DNA of 7,640 bases from a virus. Its lineage: Duplodnaviria; Heunggongvirae; Uroviricota; Caudoviricetes. Location: IMG/VR virus record IMGVR_UViG_2778261354_000005. One strand, given 5' to 3'. This document shows positions 297 through 7,640 of this stretch, one piece after another. The first letter of the stretch is position 1, and every line of letters starts with the position of its first letter. A program made the position numbers and the translations under genes. The notes below the pieces were generated by a model. That model had not been told where the DNA came from. It did no database searches and saw only the letters and a program-made list of their open reading frames with translations.

Positions 297-1112
297 TCAA
301 TGAACGGTATCGAGCAGCTTTAACAGCTCAGGGAATCGGGATTCGAAGAAATGCGGCTGCGTCTCGCGCGGATTTGCGGGACTGGTGATGTTCTTGCCGA
401 ACATGCAGCCTTTCGCTGTCAGCGACCAGAATTTTTTGATGTTGTTAATCGCGGTACGGCTGTATCGTTCGCGTTGTTCAACGATCCCCAGCTTCGCCAT
501 CTGGTGATATGCCTGATTAGCCGTCAGGCGGATACCATACTGCTTCAGCAGTGCACTCAGCGACAGCGTAGGGCGGCTTGAACCATCTGGCGCATCAGCA
601 GGTGCATCAATGGCATAGATCGGCATAAGTTCAGGAAGACCAGCTACCTTTGATAATTTCTGGTATGCACCAAGTTTCGAGGAGTTTGACAGATTTAGAG
701 TCTTTGCTGCTGATTCAAGCAGAATGACCCCGGATTTAATTTTGTCGGATGTGGTTTCTTCTGGTGATGAATTATGAAGCGCATCAAAAGTACGTATCAC
801 TTTTAAGCTGAATGCCGGGCTGATCCACATTGCATATGCATAGACCAGCTCTTTACAGACATACGTCCCACCATTGCGCCCCTGAATGGTGATGACAGGA
901 ATACTACGGGAATCTCCCGTAGTTTCTTCTTCCAATAATTCCACAAGAGCCTTCGTTTCAGGACGACGCATAAACTCGTGAACTTCCAGCGAACGGGAGG
1001 AGCGATTCTCACCAGCGGCAAGAAGAGCAGCTTTCTGAAGGTCGTTAAGACAGTAGTTAGATTCGAAGTACTGGCGCACAGAAACGCCATCAATTACAAG
1101 CAACTGATTCAT
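297..1112 (-). CDS. KilA-N domain protein with a KilA-C/ANT-like C-terminal region (phage antirepressor-like)
   Basis: The ORF track gives 297-1124. The GTG at 1124 lies inside the Shine-Dalgarno GTGGAG, and the ATG at 1112 follows GGAG by 6 nt, so it is the preferred start (271 aa). The N-terminus carries the KilA-N signature (..GRNGGTYVCKELVYAYAMWISPAFSLKVIRTF..). The C-terminal ~90 aa resembles the ANT/KilA-C pattern. Confidence 0.8.
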   Translation of the reverse strand: MNQLLVIDGVSVRQYFESNYCLNDLQKAALLAAGENRSSRSLEVHEFMRRPETKALVELLEEETTGDSRSIPVITIQGRNGGTYVCKELVYAYAMWISPAFSLKVIRTFDALHNSSPEETTSDKIKSGVILLESAAKTLNLSNSSKLGAYQKLSKVAGLPELMPIYAIDAPADAPDGSSRPTLSLSALLKQYGIRLTANQAYHQMAKLGIVEQRERYSRTAINNIKKFWSLTAKGCMFGKNITSPANPRETQPHFFESRFPELLKLLDTVH

Positions 1113-1175
1113 TGGTTTCTCCACAAATTTTTATCCACGAGCGGGACTGCACTCCCTTTTCGTTGATGCAGGATG

Positions 1176-1274: not shown

Positions 1275-1670
1275 TTACCGAGTTGCTAATTTGCAACTCG
1301 CTTTTTCGTACTTACTGATAGTGATCTCGACCTTCCCCTCCGGGATAACCGGTCCCCACTCCACCAGCATTCTTTTCACCTGTCTGTCGTCTTCCCACAC
1401 ACCCGCGTGGGTCAGGGCGTCAAACAGCGCCTTGTTATAGTTGTCCAGATCGCGGATCCGGTTATCCGGAGGAAACAACACGATCTCCACTGAAGCAGGT
1501 GCCGACGTTGGTTTCGGCAGACGACGTAACTGCTCAACTATTGCTGCACACGCCGCGCTCTGGAATTTTCGCCCCGCCGCGCTTATCAGGCTCTTACCAG
1601 CAAACGCCCCTTTGTTGGGGTGTCGCCAGTACGTGTTCACGCTGGGCGGAAAAGGCAGTATTAGCTTCAT
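1275..1670 (-). CDS. rusA: RusA-family crossover junction endodeoxyribonuclease (Holliday junction resolvase)
   Basis: 131 aa. It has the PPSxNxYWR N-terminal motif and the RDLDNYxKAxxDALT catalytic-Asp motif typical of RusA. Its ATGA start overlaps the upstream stop, and GAGGGG lies 9 nt upstream. Confidence 0.9.
   Translation of the reverse strand: MKLILPFPPSVNTYWRHPNKGAFAGKSLISAAGRKFQSAACAAIVEQLRRLPKPTSAPASVEIVLFPPDNRIRDLDNYNKALFDALTHAGVWEDDRQVKRMLVEWGPVIPEGKVEITISKYEKASCKLATR
1279..1306 (+). terminator. Plus-strand intrinsic-terminator-like hairpin embedded in the 3' end of the minus-strand rusA gene
   Basis: CGAGTTGC-taattt-GCAACTCG is an 8-bp perfect stem with a 6-nt loop, followed by C-TTTTT (1301-1306) on the + strand only. 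The minus-strand side has an A-run before the stem and no U-run after it. Confidence 0.45.
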
Positions 1671-1993
1671 ACTTTCAGGCCCCTCTCATGTAACCAGTGG
1701 GCTGCACGCAGCCTGGCGTTTGCCTCACCGGCAAGCAGGGCGCGGATAATCCCGACCGCCTCGCTGTCGTCGTCCTTCACCGCGGTATGAAGAGTGATAC
1801 CCCGGGCCACGCCACGCTTTATCGTGATGACACCTTTTTTCTCCAGTGCGCGAAGATGCTCCACCGCTGCATTCACCGAACGGTATCCCAGCATGGTTGC
1901 CACCTCCTGATTGGTTGGCGGGAAGCCACGTTCTTTCTGATAAGAAATCAGCATATCCAGCACCTGCTGCTGGCATTGAGTTAATGTCGTCAT
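1667..1993 (-). CDS. LexA N-terminal DNA-binding-domain-only protein (winged HTH; no S24 peptidase domain)
   Basis: 108 aa. Residues ~4-68 align by eye with E. coli LexA residues ~5-69, with about half the positions identical to my recollection, including the recognition-helix region RS-NAA-EHL-AL--KGVI and the following RGI-L. The protein ends about 40 aa later, so it has no Ser/Lys catalytic domain. ATGA overlaps occur at both ends. Confidence 0.85.
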   Translation of the reverse strand: MTTLTQCQQQVLDMLISYQKERGFPPTNQEVATMLGYRSVNAAVEHLRALEKKGVITIKRGVARGITLHTAVKDDDSEAVGIIRALLAGEANARLRAAHWLHERGLKV

Positions 1994-2737: not shown

Positions 2738-3733
2738 TCACCCCCTGAATCCTTCCGGGATCTGGCTGTAGTCCACGTTGTCGTAACTGGCTTTGAAGTA
2801 CGGGTCCTCGCGTCTGGCTGCAGATACCGCAGGAACTTCCCAGGATTCTTCGAAATGACGATCCGGACCAAAGAACGTCGACGCCTGCTTCACGAACTGG
2901 GTACCGGTATTTCCAGAGACACGCACCCAGGCGGCATAGCGTTTCACACCGTCGAGCATGGTTTCGGGTGTCACACCTTCCCTGATTCGGGCTTTCCAGG
3001 CTTTAAAAGCGGCGGATTTTGAATTACCACCAGCACGTTTGGGATATTCCTGCCAGGCCTGTTCAAATTCCGGTGAATATTCCTGTCTGGCAGAACGCGC
3101 TGGTGCAGACGCGTCAGCGGATGCGCCAATAGTGTTTTTAGTCTCCGTTGTAATCTCTGTAGTAATCTCTGTAGTAATCTCTGTATTTGTATCAACATTC
3201 GGCGTATCCCCTGTTCCGTTATGACGTCGGGGGGTGTTCCGTTTTAACGTAATAGCTGTATCGCTGATTGCATTATTGCTGTTACTTTCTGGCGAAACAG
3301 AAGAAGGTGTGGTGATGGCCGCAATTGCCTGTGGGTTGATCCCGACAAACAAAATATTGCTGCATTTCACCCCATCGAGCATTTCCACCGTGCGTAAATC
3401 CAGAGTAATAAACCCTGCATCGCGCAGACGCTTCAGCGCATCTGCGGTTTCCCTTTTCCCGAAACCAAACTGCTCAGCAAACGCCTGGTAGCTTCTTTGC
3501 AGTTTGTCGCCCTGAAAACGCTTGCGATATCCCAGCAACGCTCCGGTGTGCTCATCCCTGACCTCTGTCGGGCGGTACCAGTAAACGATCTCTGAAAGCA
3601 GAGCGATAGCCGTCGCATCCGGACGCCCACTGGGTAGTCTAATATATTTCCACCAGGTCGCAGGTGTAACATTGCCGGAAATATTAATTTGACCAATAGC
3701 CATAACTTCCGGTGTGGGGGCGTAACGGCTCAT
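2738..3733 (-). CDS. Replication initiator, lambda O-like in architecture (N-terminal wHTH, repeat-bearing linker, C-terminal domain)
   Basis: 331 aa. It occupies the expected position in the early operon. The N-terminal region resembles the Phage_rep_O/replisome-organizer type (..AIALLSEIVYWY..ETADALKRLRDAGFITL..). The linker is encoded by tandem 12-bp repeats, as with lambda ori inside O. The C-terminal motif EFEQAWQEYPKRxGxxSKxxAFKAW is common in phage replication proteins. ATGA start overlap with a GGAGG SD. The family assignment is by eye. Confidence 0.7.
   Translation of the reverse strand: MSRYAPTPEVMAIGQINISGNVTPATWWKYIRLPSGRPDATAIALLSEIVYWYRPTEVRDEHTGALLGYRKRFQGDKLQRSYQAFAEQFGFGKRETADALKRLRDAGFITLDLRTVEMLDGVKCSNILFVGINPQAIAAITTPSSVSPESNSNNAISDTAITLKRNTPRRHNGTGDTPNVDTNTEITTEITTEITTETKNTIGASADASAPARSARQEYSPEFEQAWQEYPKRAGGNSKSAAFKAWKARIREGVTPETMLDGVKRYAAWVRVSGNTGTQFVKQASTFFGPDRHFEESWEVPAVSAARREDPYFKASYDNVDYSQIPEGFRG
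3138..3185. repeat. Tandem 12-bp direct repeats (GTAATCTCTGTA x3 perfect, plus one degenerate copy); candidate ori iterons inside the initiator gene
   Basis: 3150-3161, 3162-3173 and 3174-3185 are identical, and 3138-3149 matches 8/12. The repeats are in frame and encode TEIT-TEIT-TEIT. Confidence 0.8.
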
Positions 3734-4029: not shown

Positions 4030-4250
4030 GCCACACCTCCCAGACGCTTAAACATTTTTCCGGAGCAAAAGGCTATAAGCGGCATACTGACGCGGTAATT
4101 ACGGCCCAGCGGTTCACAAACCACCTTCTGACATTCACGGTCAACCAGGCTAACACGTAGAACATGCCCAGCAGGCGTGGTGTACCACTGACCCGGACGA
4201 GGACAACGGAAAGTATGATTGGTAAACCGTTTGAAAATATTCCGGATCAT
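4026..4250 (-). CDS. Hypothetical 74-aa protein (possibly DUF4222-like)
   Basis: ATGA overlap with the Rha ORF stop and GTGA overlap with the next gene. The size and the W-Y..G..V.V pattern are reminiscent of small lambdoid early proteins. The family call is weak. Confidence 0.55.
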   Translation of the reverse strand: MIRNIFKRFTNHTFRCPRPGQWYTTPAGHVLRVSLVDRECQKVVCEPLGRNYRVSMPLIAFCSGKMFKRLGGVA

Positions 4251-5407
4251 TTGCGCCCCCTTACCTCTGAAGGGTTCAGCGACAAATTTATGAGACAGGC
4301 CAGCGCCGAAGCATCATTAATATAGTCATATAAGCTAACAGCCAGCGGAGATTCGGCTTTTGCCAACATAGGATAAAGCTGCTGCAGCCAGACCTGATGA
4401 ATTGATGAAATGTAGGAACAGAGAACGCTGGCGTTATGTGCAACGTCGCTCGGTACAGCGGGCTTTGAAAGCTGTTTCTCCATCTGGTTAAAGGCATTTA
4501 TGTATGCCTCTTTGAACCGGGCAGCACGTTTACCCGTGAAACCCATAGCAAGAAACGCAAAACCGTCTCGTGTGATTTGATAGCAAGGGAGCTTGCGTGT
4601 ACCACCGTTCGGTTGATTTACCGAAATCGATGTCTCCGCAAAATTGCGGGCACAAAACTCTGGGGAACAATCCAGAGTGCGGATCTTTTTCAGCACATCG
4701 TCGTGACGCTTGGAGAAGAAGTTGGCAACAGCCAAAGAAGTGGTAACGGCCTGGCCGTTGTCAATGGTGATTTCAGGTTGAGTGAGGGCTGGGATCGTAG
4801 CCATGATGGCAGCCTCCGTTGACAGTGAAAAACTTCCACCACCGGAAACGCCAATTTCACTGGTGGTGAACTGGACGGGGTTGGCGTAACCGGCGTCAAC
4901 GGAGACCGGCGCACCTTTCGGTGCCCCCGCCCAGCCCACCATAATCTGGATGTGAGCAAATGCGGACGATAAAAAAGACGCTGGCGCGTCATACATCGCC
5001 GTTGACAATTTCAGGACGCCAATCCCGGCACCCGCTTTATAAGGTGCCTGAGCAGTGTAACGTCCCGGAATTGCAGAATCAATATGCTGGTGGTCCTTCA
5101 CACTCAACAAAATCACGCCTGAATTTCCACAAAGGACTAAAGCACTCATGCGGGTAGTCTTTGCGAAGATAGATAACGCGCTGTGTTTCTGGCTCCCAAC
5201 GAATAACATGGACATAAAGCCCTCTTCCGTCACGAAACCAGCGGTTAAGTTCCTGCACAACTCGCCCCCCACAGTCAGGTAAAGTTCTCTGTGGTTACTT
5301 ACAGCCAGGTGATTTGGTAATCTGCATTCATGCCGTAACAACAGGTGTTCAGCGACGCTGACCACCAGCTGTTGCGACAAACGGTTATTTGCCGTTAAAC
5401 TATTCAT
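4247..5407 (-). CDS. 386-codon ORF: an unknown 201-aa N-terminal region fused in frame to a Rha-family phage regulatory protein (C-terminal 185 aa)
   Basis: Residues ~212-330 carry the Phage_pRha pattern (..TTSLAVANFFSKRHDDVLKKIRTL..YQITRDGFAFLAMGFTGKRAARFKEAYINAF..). The ATG at 5407 overlaps the YmfL-like stop (ATGA). There is no stop codon between the N-terminal region and the Rha part. Confidence 0.65.
   Translation of the reverse strand: MNSLTANNRLSQQLVVSVAEHLLLRHECRLPNHLAVSNHRELYLTVGGELCRNLTAGFVTEEGFMSMLFVGSQKHSALSIFAKTTRMSALVLCGNSGVILLSVKDHQHIDSAIPGRYTAQAPYKAGAGIGVLKLSTAMYDAPASFLSSAFAHIQIMVGWAGAPKGAPVSVDAGYANPVQFTTSEIGVSGGGSFSLSTEAAIMATIPALTQPEITIDNGQAVTTSLAVANFFSKRHDDVLKKIRTLDCSPEFCARNFAETSISVNQPNGGTRKLPCYQITRDGFAFLAMGFTGKRAARFKEAYINAFNQMEKQLSKPAVPSDVAHNASVLCSYISSIHQVWLQQLYPMLAKAESPLAVSLYDYINDASALACLINLSLNPSEVRGRK
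4802..4817 (-). promoter_or_regulatory. Internal ribosome-binding site plus ATG at the start of the Rha domain (alternative 185-aa product, 4247-4804)
   Basis: The minus strand reads GGAGG (4817-4813), then ctgccatc, then ATG (4804-4802). This is a consensus SD with 8-nt spacing, exactly where Rha-family proteins normally begin (MATIPALTQPEITI..). Confidence 0.55.
5289..5304. promoter_or_regulatory. Weak SOS-box-like CTGT-N8-ACAG motif inside the 5' part of the 386-codon ORF
   Basis: CTGTGGTTACTTACAG has an intact core, but the spacer is GC-containing and the flanks are non-consensus (CT..CC), so predicted affinity is low. Confidence 0.25.
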
Positions 5408-5961
5408 GCGTTAGTTTCTCCACAACCAGAAGCAATCGACGCCACGACGCCCGGAGCTGCACACTCGCGGGCGTTACTATTTTCTGGAGCGCAGAAGATT
5501 TTGTAGACCAGTGCTGCATGCTCCTGGAGCTTCGAAATTGAAAGATACAGTTCGTCGTTAATTGCTGTCTTCTCATGCGGTTCCACTACACCGTCTTCGA
5601 TTGCTGAACGAATCTGTTTTGAATAACTGCCGATCTGTTCAATGACTTCCAGTAAACGCTGGTTAATATCGGCATTGTCCACATCCTCGACGTCAGGAAG
5701 AGACACAAAGACGCCATTTGCAGACTGCGCCACAGCGTCAGCAATGAAGTGAGTGCCACCAGCACGTTGTAAAATCATTGCCCATCCCAGCGGGAAAATC
5801 TGATCGCCATCGGCACGAAGGCGGTTAAATAATGCGTTCTCTGTTACATCCAGCCACTCAGCAGCTTCAGCGTAACCCTCCGGCAACGCCGCGATAGTTT
5901 TTCTGACAGCTTTCACGTACCACTCAGGCTGTTTTTCCACTTTCCAGTTATGATTACCCAC
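5404..5961 (-). CDS. ymfL: YmfL-family putative regulatory protein (occupies the cII-like position after cro)
   Basis: 185 aa. GTG start with a GGAGG SD 6 nt upstream, and an 8-nt overlap with the Cro-like gene. The size and position (immediately after cro in an e14-type immunity region) match my recollection of e14 YmfL. The assignment rests on synteny and memory, not a search. Confidence 0.6.
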   Translation of the reverse strand: MGNHNWKVEKQPEWYVKAVRKTIAALPEGYAEAAEWLDVTENALFNRLRADGDQIFPLGWAMILQRAGGTHFIADAVAQSANGVFVSLPDVEDVDNADINQRLLEVIEQIGSYSKQIRSAIEDGVVEPHEKTAINDELYLSISKLQEHAALVYKIFCAPENSNARECAAPGVVASIASGCGETNA

Positions 5962-6214
5962 GGCTTACCTCCTGTTCCTGTGGTTTAAACCCATTCTGGT
6001 TTTGGCTAGATTGAAAACGTGCCGGATAAAGAATCTGCATTTCGCTGATTTCACCCTTAAAAAAATTGGCCAGACGTTCTGCAAGATCGATAGATGGAAT
6101 TTGTTCCAGTCTTTCAATACGACTCAGCGTCGCTGGATTGACCTGAACGCCAGCAGCAACATGCTGCAAAGTAAATCCGTGCGTCTTACGCACATTCCGT
6201 AATGGTGATTGCAT
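5954..6214 (-). CDS. Cro-like XRE-family HTH regulator
   Basis: 86 aa, divergent from the repressor gene. The HTH segment is ..FTLQHVAAGVQVNPATLSRIERLEQIPS... A GGAGG SD (6223-6219) lies 4 nt before the ATG at 6214. Confidence 0.8.
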   Translation of the reverse strand: MQSPLRNVRKTHGFTLQHVAAGVQVNPATLSRIERLEQIPSIDLAERLANFFKGEISEMQILYPARFQSSQNQNGFKPQEQEVSRG

Positions 6215-6311
6215 ATTACCTCCACATATTGCGTGATGAGCATATTATTTCACGCAAATATTTTGCGCAAGTTGATTTGCTTAACGCGCAATAAAGAAAT
6301 GTAATAAACGC
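6215..6311. promoter_or_regulatory. OR-like divergent control region: PR-like promoter (-), PRM-like promoter (+) and repeated TTGCG/CGCAA operator half-sites
   Basis: PR-like on the minus strand: TTGCGC (6270-6265)-N17-TAATAT (6247-6242). PRM-like on the plus strand: TTGCTT (6277-6282)-N17-TGTAAT (6300-6305). This predicts a start about 7 nt later at the A of the cI ATG (6312), and no SD is present, implying a leaderless cI mRNA as in lambda. Dyads: TTGCTTAACGCGCAA (6277-6291), CGCAAATATTTTGCG (6253-6267) and TTGCGTGATGAGCAT (6229-6243), with centres 24 bp apart. Confidence 0.65.
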
Positions 6312-7004
6312 ATGAACATAGGAAACCGAGTCAGACAACTTCGCCAGGCGAAGAACATGAAAATCGCCGATCTCGCTGAAGCAATAGGAGTGGATGCGGC
6401 GAATATCTCACGCCTGGAAACAGGTAAGCAGAAACAATTCACTGAACAAGCCCTGAGTAATATTGCCAGGAGCTTAGGTGTTGATATTGCTGATCTCTTT
6501 ACCTCAGACGTCAAAAGTAATACTGTATTTAAAAACAGTATTAGTGAGGATGTTGCGCAGGTGAAGGATGTATTCCGTATTGAAATGCTGGATGTCAGTG
6601 CCAGTGCGGGAAATGGCCTTATCCAGGGCGGTGATGTCATTGATGTGATTCATGCCATTGAATACAGAACTGATAATGCTGTATCGATGTTTGGCGGACG
6701 GCCAGCCAATCACATTAAAGTTATCAACGTTCGTGGGGACAGTATGTGTCCAACCATTGAGCCAGGAGATCTCATCTTCGTTGATGTCAGTATCAATCAG
6801 TTTGATGGAGATGGTATCTATGTATTTGGTTTTGATGATAAAATTTATGTCAAACGACTGCAAATGATACCTGACAAACTACTGGTGATTTCTGATAACC
6901 AGATTTACCGTGAATGGGGAATTACCAGCGAAAATGAACACCGGTTTATGGTCTTTGGAAAGGTCTTAATCAGCCAGTCACAAACCCTTAAGCGACACAA
7001 TTAA
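6312..7004 (+). CDS. cI-like prophage repressor: XRE HTH plus LexA/S24 autopeptidase domain
   Basis: 230 aa. N-terminal HTH (..IADLAEAIGVDAANISRLETGKQ..). Candidate Ala99-Gly100 cleavage site (SASAGNG). Catalytic Ser144 lies in GDSMCPTI and Lys181 in YVKRL. The Ser-Lys spacing is 37 residues, as in LexA. Confidence 0.9.
   Translation: MNIGNRVRQLRQAKNMKIADLAEAIGVDAANISRLETGKQKQFTEQALSNIARSLGVDIADLFTSDVKSNTVFKNSISEDVAQVKDVFRIEMLDVSASAGNGLIQGGDVIDVIHAIEYRTDNAVSMFGGRPANHIKVINVRGDSMCPTIEPGDLIFVDVSINQFDGDGIYVFGFDDKIYVKRLQMIPDKLLVISDNQIYREWGITSENEHRFMVFGKVLISQSQTLKRHN
6521..6540. promoter_or_regulatory. Near-consensus LexA (SOS) box inside the cI-like coding sequence
   Basis: TACTGTATTTAAAAACAGTA is a 17/20 match to TACTGTATATATATACAGTA, with perfect 8-bp arms AATACTGT/ACAGTATT (6519-6542). 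It encodes N70-I77 in the interdomain linker. Confidence 0.7.
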
Positions 7005-7024
7005 CCCTTACCTCCTCATCAATT

Positions 7025-7046
7025 AGCCACCCAAAGGTGGCTTTTC
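7025..7046 (+). terminator. Rho-independent terminator of the repressor gene
   Basis: AGCCACC-caaa-GGTGGCT has a 7-bp stem and a 4-nt loop. Its last base begins the run TTTT (7042-7045), and it starts 21 nt after the cI stop. Confidence 0.75.
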
Positions 7047-7059
7047 ATTACCCTTTAAA

Positions 7060-7112
7060 TTGCATATCTCGCAATAAAAACACTTGCATAATGCGCAACT
7101 TCATTTTATCTT
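7060..7112 (+). promoter_or_regulatory. OL/PL-like region: two operator-like dyads and a rightward promoter
   Basis: TTGCATATCTCGCAA (7060-7074) and TTGCATAATGCGCAA (7084-7098) share the TTGC-N7-GCAA architecture of the 6277-6291 site, and their centres are 24 bp apart. The candidate promoter TTGCAT (7084-7089)-N17-TATCTT (7107-7112) overlaps the second dyad. Confidence 0.5.
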
Positions 7113-7118
7113 TCTTTC

Positions 7119-7570
7119 CAGACAAACAAACAAGGTACTAACAAAATTTGGTTGTAACACGGCGTATGGCACATGCGTCGTTAGCGGTCTGGGGACGTTA
7201 AAGGGGACAATCCACTCCTTGCTCGAGCAAACAAACCAGGTAGCCGGAATGTGCAAGTCAATGATGATGCTGATAAGACGCCTAACCAGCGTGGCGATTC
7301 GGTTTGACGCCTGGGAAGAGACCAGGGTGCAACGATGAGGGCATTTATGGAGCCGCGACAAAGTGTGGTGCTGTAACTGGCTAAGTGCTCTCAGCGTTGT
7401 GGTAATCCGCGAAATGGCGCGGCGGTAAGTATGGCGGGGTTACTCTTTCCCCGTTGAGGACACCGGATTGTCAGGTTGACCATACGCCTGAGTGACAACC
7501 CCACCACAACAGCCACTGCTTTGGCGGTACCAGTTTGTACCCTTGCTTCCGGCTGGTACCGCTCTTTTTA
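7119..7570 (+). ncRNA. Candidate long untranslated, structured leader/ncRNA downstream of the PL-like promoter
   Basis: No ORF has both a credible start and an SD; the best are peptides of 8-31 codons. There is dense complementarity, including nested helices at 7396-7510. It ends at a 10-bp hairpin plus T-run. The extent and the existence of the transcript are inferred, not shown. Confidence 0.3.
7524..7570 (+). terminator. 10-bp perfect hairpin followed by CGCTCTTTTTA: an atypical terminator and/or a boxA-like nut element
   Basis: GCGGTACCAG (7524-7533) pairs with CTGGTACCGC (7553-7562), leaving a 19-nt loop. The sequence then continues as CGCTCTTTTTACAA (7560-7573), which resembles boxA (lambda CGCTCTTA; rrn TGCTCTTTAACAA). 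The large loop weakens a terminator call. Confidence 0.35.
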
Positions 7571-7640
7571 CAAAACAGAGAAGAGCATCACCGGACGACG
7601 GGCTCATAACCCAATCCATCCGGGCGGCTGCCACCGCAGG

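Follow-up and report, generated by a model that had tools for sequence, protein, structure and literature searches.

We analysed a 7,640-nucleotide (nt) stretch of DNA, here called the window, from IMG/VR virus record IMGVR_UViG_2778261354_000005 (Caudoviricetes), which represents the early region of a lambdoid prophage (SfV/mEp460/ST64B type). Its cI-like repressor gene contains, in the codons that link the helix-turn-helix (HTH) domain to the Peptidase_S24 domain, the 20-mer TACTGTATTTAAAAACAGTA, which is very probably a genuine LexA-type operator (SOS box) under selection, judging from its sequence and its conservation among homologues. A conserved Shine-Dalgarno (SD) sequence and start codon follow the box in the repressor reading frame. 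Taking the reading as a whole, we put the chances at about even that the box gates a nested gene for an isoform of approximately 145 amino acids that consists of the C-terminal domain (CTD) only and would probably act, late in the SOS response, as a dominant-negative form of the repressor.

The LexA-type box in the linker codons of cI

The repressor gene and the elements within it that are needed here are as follows.

6312–7004, plus strand: cI-like repressor gene, 230 amino acids, with HTH_3, a variable linker and Peptidase_S24 (open reading frame (ORF) list and Pfam)
6521–6540, no strand assigned: LexA operator (SOS box) TACTGTATTTAAAAACAGTA in cI codons 70–77, with 17/20 matches to the consensus and a position weight matrix (PWM) score of 26.3 bits
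6606–6611, plus strand: cI cleavage site Ala99-Gly100, read from the sequence
6741–6743, plus strand: cI Ser144, read from the sequence
6852–6854, plus strand: cI Lys181, read from the sequence

The cI-like ORF matched the Pfam domains HTH_3 (1.1e-10) and Peptidase_S24 (6.4e-19). A99-G100, S144 and K181 were invariant in a six-sequence alignment (A1), and the glycine, S144 and K181 were invariant in a second alignment (A2) as well. In other words, the Pfam matches and the residues give the gene the architecture of a lambda-type self-cleaving repressor, with an HTH domain joined to Peptidase_S24, an Ala-Gly site and a Ser/Lys dyad.

A sequence-only reading of the window had picked out the box, and both its position and its 17/20 match to the LexA consensus TACTGTATATATATACAGTA were confirmed. 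It extends from the third base of the N70 codon to the first base of the I77 codon, that is, within the linker codons to which that reading had assigned it. No other site in the window lies within three mismatches of TACTGTATATATATACAGTA, and none of 200 shuffles gave one. The left 8-mer agrees with the consensus at 8/8 positions and the right 8-mer at 7/8, and the AT-rich centre also follows the LexA consensus. The “perfect 8-bp arms” ascribed to the box are found when the flanking bases are included (AATACTGT/ACAGTATT, 6519–6542), whereas inside the 20-mer the arms measure 6 bp (TACTGT/ACAGTA).

The strength of the box was estimated with a symmetric PWM derived from the 18 LexA sites of E. 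coli given in PMC3009722 (Table 4). On this scale, the box reached 26.3 bits, compared with 27.3 bits for umuD/sbmC, 20.4 for recA, 20.0 for sulA and 19.1 for lexA, and the known E. coli LexA sites spanned 6.6–27.6 bits when scored by leave-one-out. The best score among 300 shuffled windows was 18.6 bits, and the median best score was 7.5 bits. The consensus of the repressor family, TACTGTATATAAAAACAGTA, is letter for letter the umuD/sbmC operator printed in PMC3009722; the SfII box is identical to TACTGTATATAAAAACAGTA, and the window box differs from it by one base (T for A at position 9).

Three copies of CTGT-N8-ACAG had been counted in the window, and three are present against an expectation of 0.10, but just two are credible as LexA sites, the copies scoring 26.3 bits (6521), 21.3 bits (1210) and 6.7 bits (5287). 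The third copy (5289–5304) was rejected as a LexA site, because its 6.7 bits lie under the shuffled median of 7.5, and was taken as a chance match. The two strong copies do share their first 11 nt, the minus strand of 1210–1229 reading TACTGTATTTATGAACAGTG. This second credible SOS box (CACTGTTCATAAATACAGTA, 1210–1229, 21.3 bits) is situated in a 150-bp gap upstream of a KilA-N gene (ORF 297–1124, minus strand), and that gene may be under LexA control, with an accessory or antirepressor-type function. Hardly any space separates RusA from the KilA-N gene in mEp460 and E. coli ST95-32, and CTGT-N8-ACAG is absent at this place in mEp460; the KilA-N gene of ST64B, 60% identical, comes without a box.

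Homologues of the repressor gene were collected from annotated phages, one genome per species, IMG/VR and metagenomes, giving 171 distinct coding sequences, and homologues below 92% amino acid identity formed a set of 50 representatives. The IMG/VR scan with a window-type alignment returned near-identical copies only, and distant members were reached by re-anchoring. The same codons carried the box at 19 bits or more in 47 of the 50 representatives, and the metagenome scan revealed no further homologues without the box. Box-bearing homologues showed 54–97% amino acid identity and were distributed over at least a dozen named genera, including Escherichia, Salmonella, Klebsiella, Citrobacter, Pantoea, Serratia and Proteus. 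Furthermore, a second subfamily with a different HTH (SRLERGxQGYS) keeps the box, in which T-V-D-S-Y-S is encoded by T ACT GTA GAT TCA TAC AGT A.

Codon usage within the box was strongly restricted. ACTG-N10-CAGT was invariant in the 46 aligned representatives, Thr71 was encoded by ACT in 48/48 and Ser76 by AGT in 48/49 sequences. Columns 70 and 75 each accommodate eight amino acids; the codons listed for column 70 (46/50 sequences) end in T with one exception, and 49/50 codons listed for column 75 end in C. When codon entropy was compared over 58 conserved columns with four- or six-fold degeneracy in the first 31 homologues, T71, S76 and V72 ranked first, second and fourth lowest, and the other conserved Thr, Ser and Val columns of these homologues used all codons. 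The information content was 1.7–2.0 bits in the arms and 0.1–0.6 bits immediately outside the 20-mer. Selection at the DNA level, which the sequence-only reading had considered plausible, is borne out by these data: the synonymous positions are frozen rather than freely varying, and conservation is at background just outside the 20-mer. Because the amino acids vary while the box letters and synonymous sites stay fixed, the alignments indicate that the box is kept by selection on DNA, not on protein.

The same data bear on the idea that the box has no present function and is a chance occurrence, a by-product of constraints on T-V...N-S, or a relic of a umuD-like gene fused to an HTH. T71, V72 and S76 are indeed conserved as amino acids too, and a fusion origin is conceivable given that the nearest solved relatives of the CTD are UmuD/UmuD′ and the operator is that of umuDC. 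However, every other conserved Thr, Ser or Val column is scrambled where the synonymous box sites are frozen, and neighbouring codons change their amino acid and still keep the box letters. A relic would not have survived a protein divergence of more than 40%, and the expectation by chance is about 0 per window. We therefore find this explanation hardly credible.

The palindrome might alternatively be read as a stem-loop in the cI mRNA (for example for processing or pausing, or to mask the internal SD) or as a DNA hairpin, instead of a protein-binding site. A hairpin at 6505–6556 of the window has a predicted energy of −16.7 kcal/mol (z = −6.7), and pairing directly beyond the 20-mer is seen in about half of the homologues, with several types of compensatory pair. 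Against this, the arms never covary (ACTG and CAGT being invariant), and the tolerated change of A15 to C or T (7/46) breaks a pair, yet is a normal variant of LexA sites (recN, dinI and uvrB). The AT-rich centre corresponding to the LexA consensus and the identity of the family 20-mer with chromosomal LexA operators also argue for a protein site, leaving the hairpin as a highly improbable account of the box.

The palindrome is often 2–3 bp longer than the 20-mer (6517–6544 in alignment A4; AATACTGT/ACAGTATT in the window), with compensatory changes in homologues. None of 500 shuffles reached the observed value of covariation outside the 20-mer, a control that is not phylogeny-proof. The extended palindrome may have an additional RNA or cruciform role.

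A candidate nested gene downstream of the box

The elements of the candidate nested gene are as follows.

6498–6503, plus strand: candidate −35 element TTTACC, proposed from its place 17 nt before TACTGT; 4/6 match
6521–6526, plus strand: candidate −10 element TACTGT, the left arm of the box, proposed from geometry; the short transcript is predicted to start near 6533
6546–6550, plus strand: internal SD-like GAGGA, 10 nt upstream of GTG 6561; −6.8 kcal/mol with the 16S 3′ end
6561–7004, plus strand: predicted nested in-frame ORF from GTG Val84 to the cI stop codon, 147 amino acids, CTD only, with a 15-residue arm before Ala-Gly

Among the 50 representatives, column 87, the first CTD residue just before [YF]R[VI][ED], was GTG, ATG or TTG in 43, and an SD duplex of −4.5 kcal/mol or lower was located −16 to −5 upstream of the column-87 start in 42. 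Examples are AAAAGGGGAGAAAAGAT GTG, GCGAGGAGGAATGAT GTG, AAGAAGGAGGGTCGCGAT GTG and AGGAGGGAGGGAGCA ATG ATG. An internal in-frame start with its own SD is conserved here beyond the need of the protein. The column-87 SD has the strongest mean value in the gene (−7.3 kcal/mol; next independent position, −5.1 kcal/mol), and the residues encoded by it are hypervariable, with 44 distinct pentapeptides in 50 sequences. In addition, Val87 uses GTG in 39/43 sequences, compared with 17% at 16 other Val columns. All listed variants with the box place it 49 or 52 nt from the column-87 codon, and the information profile consists of the box, a flat stretch, a bump reading GAGGG (+40 to +44, counted from where the box starts), and GTG at +52. 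The window and ST64B clades have their candidate start three codons earlier (V84), 40 or 43 nt from the box. The combination of SD and start is missing from the two Dryocola homologues, one boxless (L023) and one with a degenerate CTGT-N8-ACAG of 6.6 bits (L027), as well as from the boxless Phaseolibacter homologue. From this pattern, a nested gene for a CTD-only protein inside cI appears somewhat more probable than its absence. Met92 was also considered as an internal start and rejected, since homologues have I, V or L there and no SD precedes it.

Of the roles offered by the sequence-only reading, a LexA-gated internal promoter in the sense direction, giving a CTD-only repressor fragment, is the one that we favour. 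The TTTACC (6498–6503)-N17-TACTGT (6521–6526) arrangement described there is present in the window, and nearly all homologues have a TT-initial hexamer (TTTACC/A/T, TTCTCA or TTTATT) at exactly 17 nt before TACTGT. This role is favoured by the conserved SD and start about 50 nt downstream and by the umuDC-like geometry, with the amendment that the likely start in the window is GTG V84 (6561), not a Met codon.

The transcript that enters the box from upstream is probably leaderless. The cI ATG at 6312 has no SD before it (−0.9 kcal/mol with the 16S 3′ end), and differential RNA sequencing (dRNA-seq) of the ST64B homologue SL1344_1967 placed a transcription start site (TSS) exactly at the A of the ATG and a second TSS 292 nt upstream (supplements of PMC3293720 and PMC3963941). 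The sequence upstream of the cI ATG is nearly identical in the window and ST64B. Because an SD is lacking at the ATG and the TSS of the ST64B homologue is the A of the ATG, the window cI mRNA is probably leaderless as well, with the repressor promoter PRM starting at A6312. Near the same 5′ end, Gly4 of cI is an unusually frozen codon, being GGA in 29/31 homologues.

In the nested-gene reading, a cell with intact LexA would make full-length repressor only, from the leaderless PRM transcript. Once LexA is depleted, the internal promoter TTTACC-N17-TACTGT would fire, and the protein of approximately 145 amino acids would be made; it would contain the C-terminal dimerisation/protease domain with the Ala-Gly site and lack the DNA-binding domain. 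Tight operators such as that of umuDC are derepressed late. Because the box matches in strength the operator of umuDC, which is expressed late in SOS, firing would be expected only after heavy or lasting damage. The short protein and the full-length repressor would then form mixed dimers that cannot hold operators, in effect a built-in, immunity-specific antirepressor, and these dimers would sharpen and commit induction. Reportedly, in work by De Anda, Poteete and Sauer in 1983, overproduced C-terminal domain of P22 c2 induced a lysogen through heterodimers. We advance this pro-induction, dominant-negative role of the short protein tentatively; it might instead serve as a RecA* decoy or cleave the repressor in trans, and LexA may in addition block PRM transcription in part. 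As for the repressor of the box, host LexA is the sole factor common to all box-bearing hosts, and we infer that it is LexA that binds.

Several observations weigh against the nested gene and its proposed role. The −35 is weak (TTTACC in the window; TTCTCT or TTTATT in other clades) and overlaps the conserved Phe63/Thr64 codons, so that its conservation is not independent evidence, and a consensus promoter scan did not call TTTACC-N17-TACTGT. Nor was there a TSS near the box among those listed in two SL1344 dRNA-seq tables, from cultures without DNA damage (PMC3293720, PMC3963941). Column 87 is GTA in the clade of the window, where the candidate GTG V84 has a rather long SD spacing of 10 nt. 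In some Klebsiella-type clades, column 87 offers no start codon, and homologues L007, L008, L013 and L156 in such clades have GAGG-N8-GTG at V95 instead (L156 by sequence reading). The conserved RGDSM motif also creates an SD and ATG at M145 in 21–36 of the 50 sequences, so combinations of SD and start can be by-products, although the RGDSM amino acids are fixed there. An SD-like motif within an ORF can, besides, be a site of translational pausing. As for induction, the direction in which it would be affected is purely inferred.

A different use of the same operator is a roadblock, in which LexA bound about 210 bp inside the gene would hinder RNA polymerase coming from PRM or from an upstream PRE-like promoter. 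The supply of repressor would be held down in healthy cells and would rise on LexA cleavage, buffering the lysogen against mild or transient SOS. The roadblock needs the box alone, which is the best-conserved element, and a very strong operator does stand in the path of the mapped ST64B cI transcripts that start at the ATG and 292 nt upstream. The RNA of the ST64B cI locus is also up on peroxide shock: in strain D23580, cI RNA increased from 251 to 394 transcripts per million (1.6-fold, at gene level) with the prophage undergoing induction, and cro and the PL genes doubled (PMC7067206, Table S5). This rise fits a derepressed internal promoter or a released roadblock alike and supports the nested gene weakly. 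However, the roadblock leaves unexplained the conserved SD and start downstream and their fixed distance from the box, and a weaker PRM would have the same static effect. Moreover, the block set by one repressor dimer is usually leaky where the region is translated. We consider this role improbable as the explanation of the box, though it could act beside the nested gene.

The box could also gate transcription in the opposite direction, giving a minus-strand RNA antisense to the 5′ third of cI and directed toward cro that would lower repressor synthesis, analogous to the LexA-controlled oop RNA of lambda. The symmetric box offers TACTGT on the minus strand too, and the minus strand of the window has TTGACG-N19-CAATAT beside it. 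Yet this TTGACG is not conserved, and the place where a minus-strand −35 would be expected is the purine-rich SD stretch, which reads CCTC on that strand. No antisense TSS is among those listed for SL1344_1967. A minus-strand promoter was rejected on the ground that no −35/−10 pair recurs at a fixed position among the homologues, and we give the antisense explanation very little credence.

The e14 repressor YmfK was tried as a route into the E. coli K-12 data on chromatin immunoprecipitation, TSSs and ribosome profiling and was set aside, since it falls into a different family and its gene is free of the box. The K-12 e14 element (L347, 1201579) has a weak LexA-like site, TTCTGTACCAGAAAACAGTT (12/20), in ymfI.

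Comparison with known systems and the phage LexA-like protein

The arrangement most similar to the candidate unit is umuDC. E. coli K-12 umuD reads TTGATC-N17-TACTGTATATAAAAACAGTA-N19-ATG, and the window reads TTTACC-N17-TACTGTATTTAAAAACAGTA-N20-GTG; in both, a LexA box lies over the −10 (a candidate −10 in the window), and the ORF that follows codes for a protein of the S24 fold whose short N-terminal arm contains a cleavage site. The nearest solved structures to the 147-residue product were UmuD/UmuD′ (E about 1e-4). Its match to the UmuD NCBIfam model PRK10276 (7e-08) scored 32.5 and is below the cut-off of 110. Unlike umuDC, the window unit lies in frame inside a larger repressor gene, no umuC-like gene follows cI (there is a terminator at 7025–7042 and no ORF after it), the −35 is weaker (TTTACC vs TTGATC), and the product is a repressor CTD that is only a distant relative of UmuD. 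Architecturally, the 3′ two-thirds of cI resemble a umuD-type SOS gene, an HTH being fused in front. On a bolder view, the whole cI family would be two genes in one, an HTH fused before a still-active umuD-like SOS gene whose LexA-timed CTD product, and not just self-cleavage stimulated by RecA, commits the prophage to lysis, either by poisoning repressor dimers or through their cleavage in trans; we regard this as possible but on the unlikely side.

LexA-controlled antirepressors are known from temperate phages (Lemire et al. 2011, PMC3121763; reviewed in PMC7380047). Tum of phage 186, GfoA/GfhA of the Gifsy phages and AntC of N15 follow the same logic, in which LexA, and not only cleavage mediated by RecA, times the inactivation of a repressor through a damage-induced protein. 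Theirs, however, are separate genes for unrelated small proteins, and the target repressors are typically not self-cleaving. In the window, the candidate antirepressor would be the repressor's own CTD, made from a nested gene (6561–7004), and the repressor keeps its Ala-Gly site and Ser/Lys dyad. The window candidate is hence neither a separate gene nor an unrelated protein, though it may work alike.

The repressors lambda CI, P22 C2 and 434 CI resemble the window cI in their HTH-linker-S24 layout, Ala-Gly site, divergent cro and leaderless PRM transcript (the last known here from dRNA-seq of the ST64B homologue), but their sequence similarity to it is remote. We know of no LexA operator or internal start in the genes for these three repressors. 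The repressor gene c of phiC31 and IS50 Tnp/Inh each produce, from one frame, a full-length DNA-binding form and an N-terminally shorter modulating form; neither pair is under LexA control or has a tie to SOS or to S24 repressors.

The window also encodes a LexA-like protein of its own.

1667–1993, minus strand: LexA DNA-binding-domain-only protein, 108 amino acids, LexA_DNA_bind 2.9e-19, without an S24 domain

This protein is 43% identical to the N-terminal domain of E. coli LexA, and its recognition helix is similar. It would be non-cleavable because the S24 domain is missing. Nearly identical proteins are present in SfV, SfII, SfIV, mEp460, cdtI and Stx2/Stx2c phages, and no description of its function was found in the literature searched. 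After induction, it could re-repress SOS boxes, including both in the window.

The sequence-only reading had suggested that this early operon product shuts off cI through the box after induction, to which shut-off of the nested gene can be added. The LexA_DNA_bind match makes it plausible that the protein binds SOS boxes in those phages that encode it. However, a tblastn search of the whole ST64B genome, which retains the box, found no homologue of the 108-residue protein, so such a protein is not the conserved cause of the box. None of the box-bearing Klebsiella phages, phiNP and Eeyore appeared among the tblastn records listed for the protein (60 of 61), and conversely the protein occurs in SfV, SfIV, cdtI and Stx2c phages, which were missing from the matches listed for the cI query. 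The chance that the box exists as its target is slight, and in some phages the protein is an add-on at most. No CTG-N10-CAG site other than the intragenic box reaches 12/20 matches in the 40 kb of ST64B. Because ST64B lacks the LexA-like gene and has the intragenic box as its only one, the box is functionally part of the cI module itself.

The surrounding locus and significance of the box

The cI module of the window is 96–98% identical to those of mEp460 and several Stx2 phages, 91% to that of SfII, approximately 75% to that of Salmonella ST64B and approximately 70% to those of Klebsiella and Citrobacter phages. It serves as the immunity module in the Shiga-toxin phages Stx2a_1447, Stx2a_WGPS2, 1720a-02 and Stx2k, in the serotype-converting Shigella phage SfII, in ST64B and in Klebsiella prophages, and the cI gene was present at about 90% nucleotide identity or more in 1040 of 5426 complete E. 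coli genomes. The features flanking the gene are as follows.

5954–6214, minus strand: cro-like HTH gene, divergent from cI (ORF list and Pfam)
6215–6311, no strand assigned: cI-cro intergenic operator/promoter region; PRM probably starts at A6312
7025–7042, plus strand: intrinsic terminator after cI (terminator scan), which would end full-length and short transcripts alike

The other minus-strand genes of the window encode a CII/CP76-like protein, an Ash/Rha ORF after a pair of C4/isrK RNAs, a replication protein, Dam, the LexA_DNA_bind-only protein of 108 residues, RusA and the KilA-N protein. A terminator-like hairpin with a T-rich tail (6178–6194, minus strand) lies within the cro-like gene close to its 5′ end, on the coding strand, and may be an attenuator or a chance match. 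Rfam identified two adjacent RNAs at 4859–5047 on the minus strand, C4 antisense RNA with 81 bits and isrK with 62 bits, inside the 386-residue Ash+Rha ORF (4247–5407). This tandem corresponds to a c4-antirepressor module like immI of P1/P7, in the early right operon, and the Ash/Rha protein probably starts downstream of the two RNAs. Within the replication-protein ORF (2738–3733), three tandem copies of GTAATCTCTGTA encoding TEITTEITTEIT (3150–3185, minus strand) look like origin iterons in an O-like gene, as in lambda.

The stretch after the cI terminator (7005–7640) resembles a PL region and has operator-like TGCGCAA/TCGCAAT motifs at approximately 7060–7100. It appears to be free of genes: in ST95-32, the annotation pipeline PGAP leaves the approximately 720 nt from cI to yfdP empty, and no convincing ORF was seen in, at least, the approximately 540 nt of this stretch that the window covers. 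No Rfam hit was obtained in 7005–7640, and the fold z-score was only −1.25. The equivalent stretch of ST64B holds the small RNA STnc1310, reported to be induced by peroxide and nitric oxide.

LexA-controlled antirepressors, umuD-type SOS genes and nested regulator isoforms are each already known. In the literature searched, we found no description of this box, of its binding in EMSA or ChIP experiments, of intragenic LexA sites in phage repressors, or of truncated repressor isoforms, and exact matches to the 20-mers were limited to the umuD/sbmC operators in PMC3009722 and one synthetic SOS-promoter paper. What appears to be new here is the combination of an SOS operator, a candidate promoter, an SD and a start in the linker of a self-cleaving repressor, conserved across the Enterobacterales. 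If the nested-gene reading is correct, operator, promoter, ribosome-binding site and start would be packed into linker codons, a clean case that is invisible to gene finders. If the family is in fact two genes in one, the induction threshold would be set by a umuDC-grade operator within those codons. A self-cleaving repressor that carries its own LexA-timed antagonist would add a new layer to the textbook switch, and induction, together with toxin release in Stx phages, would then depend on the depletion of LexA late in the SOS response.

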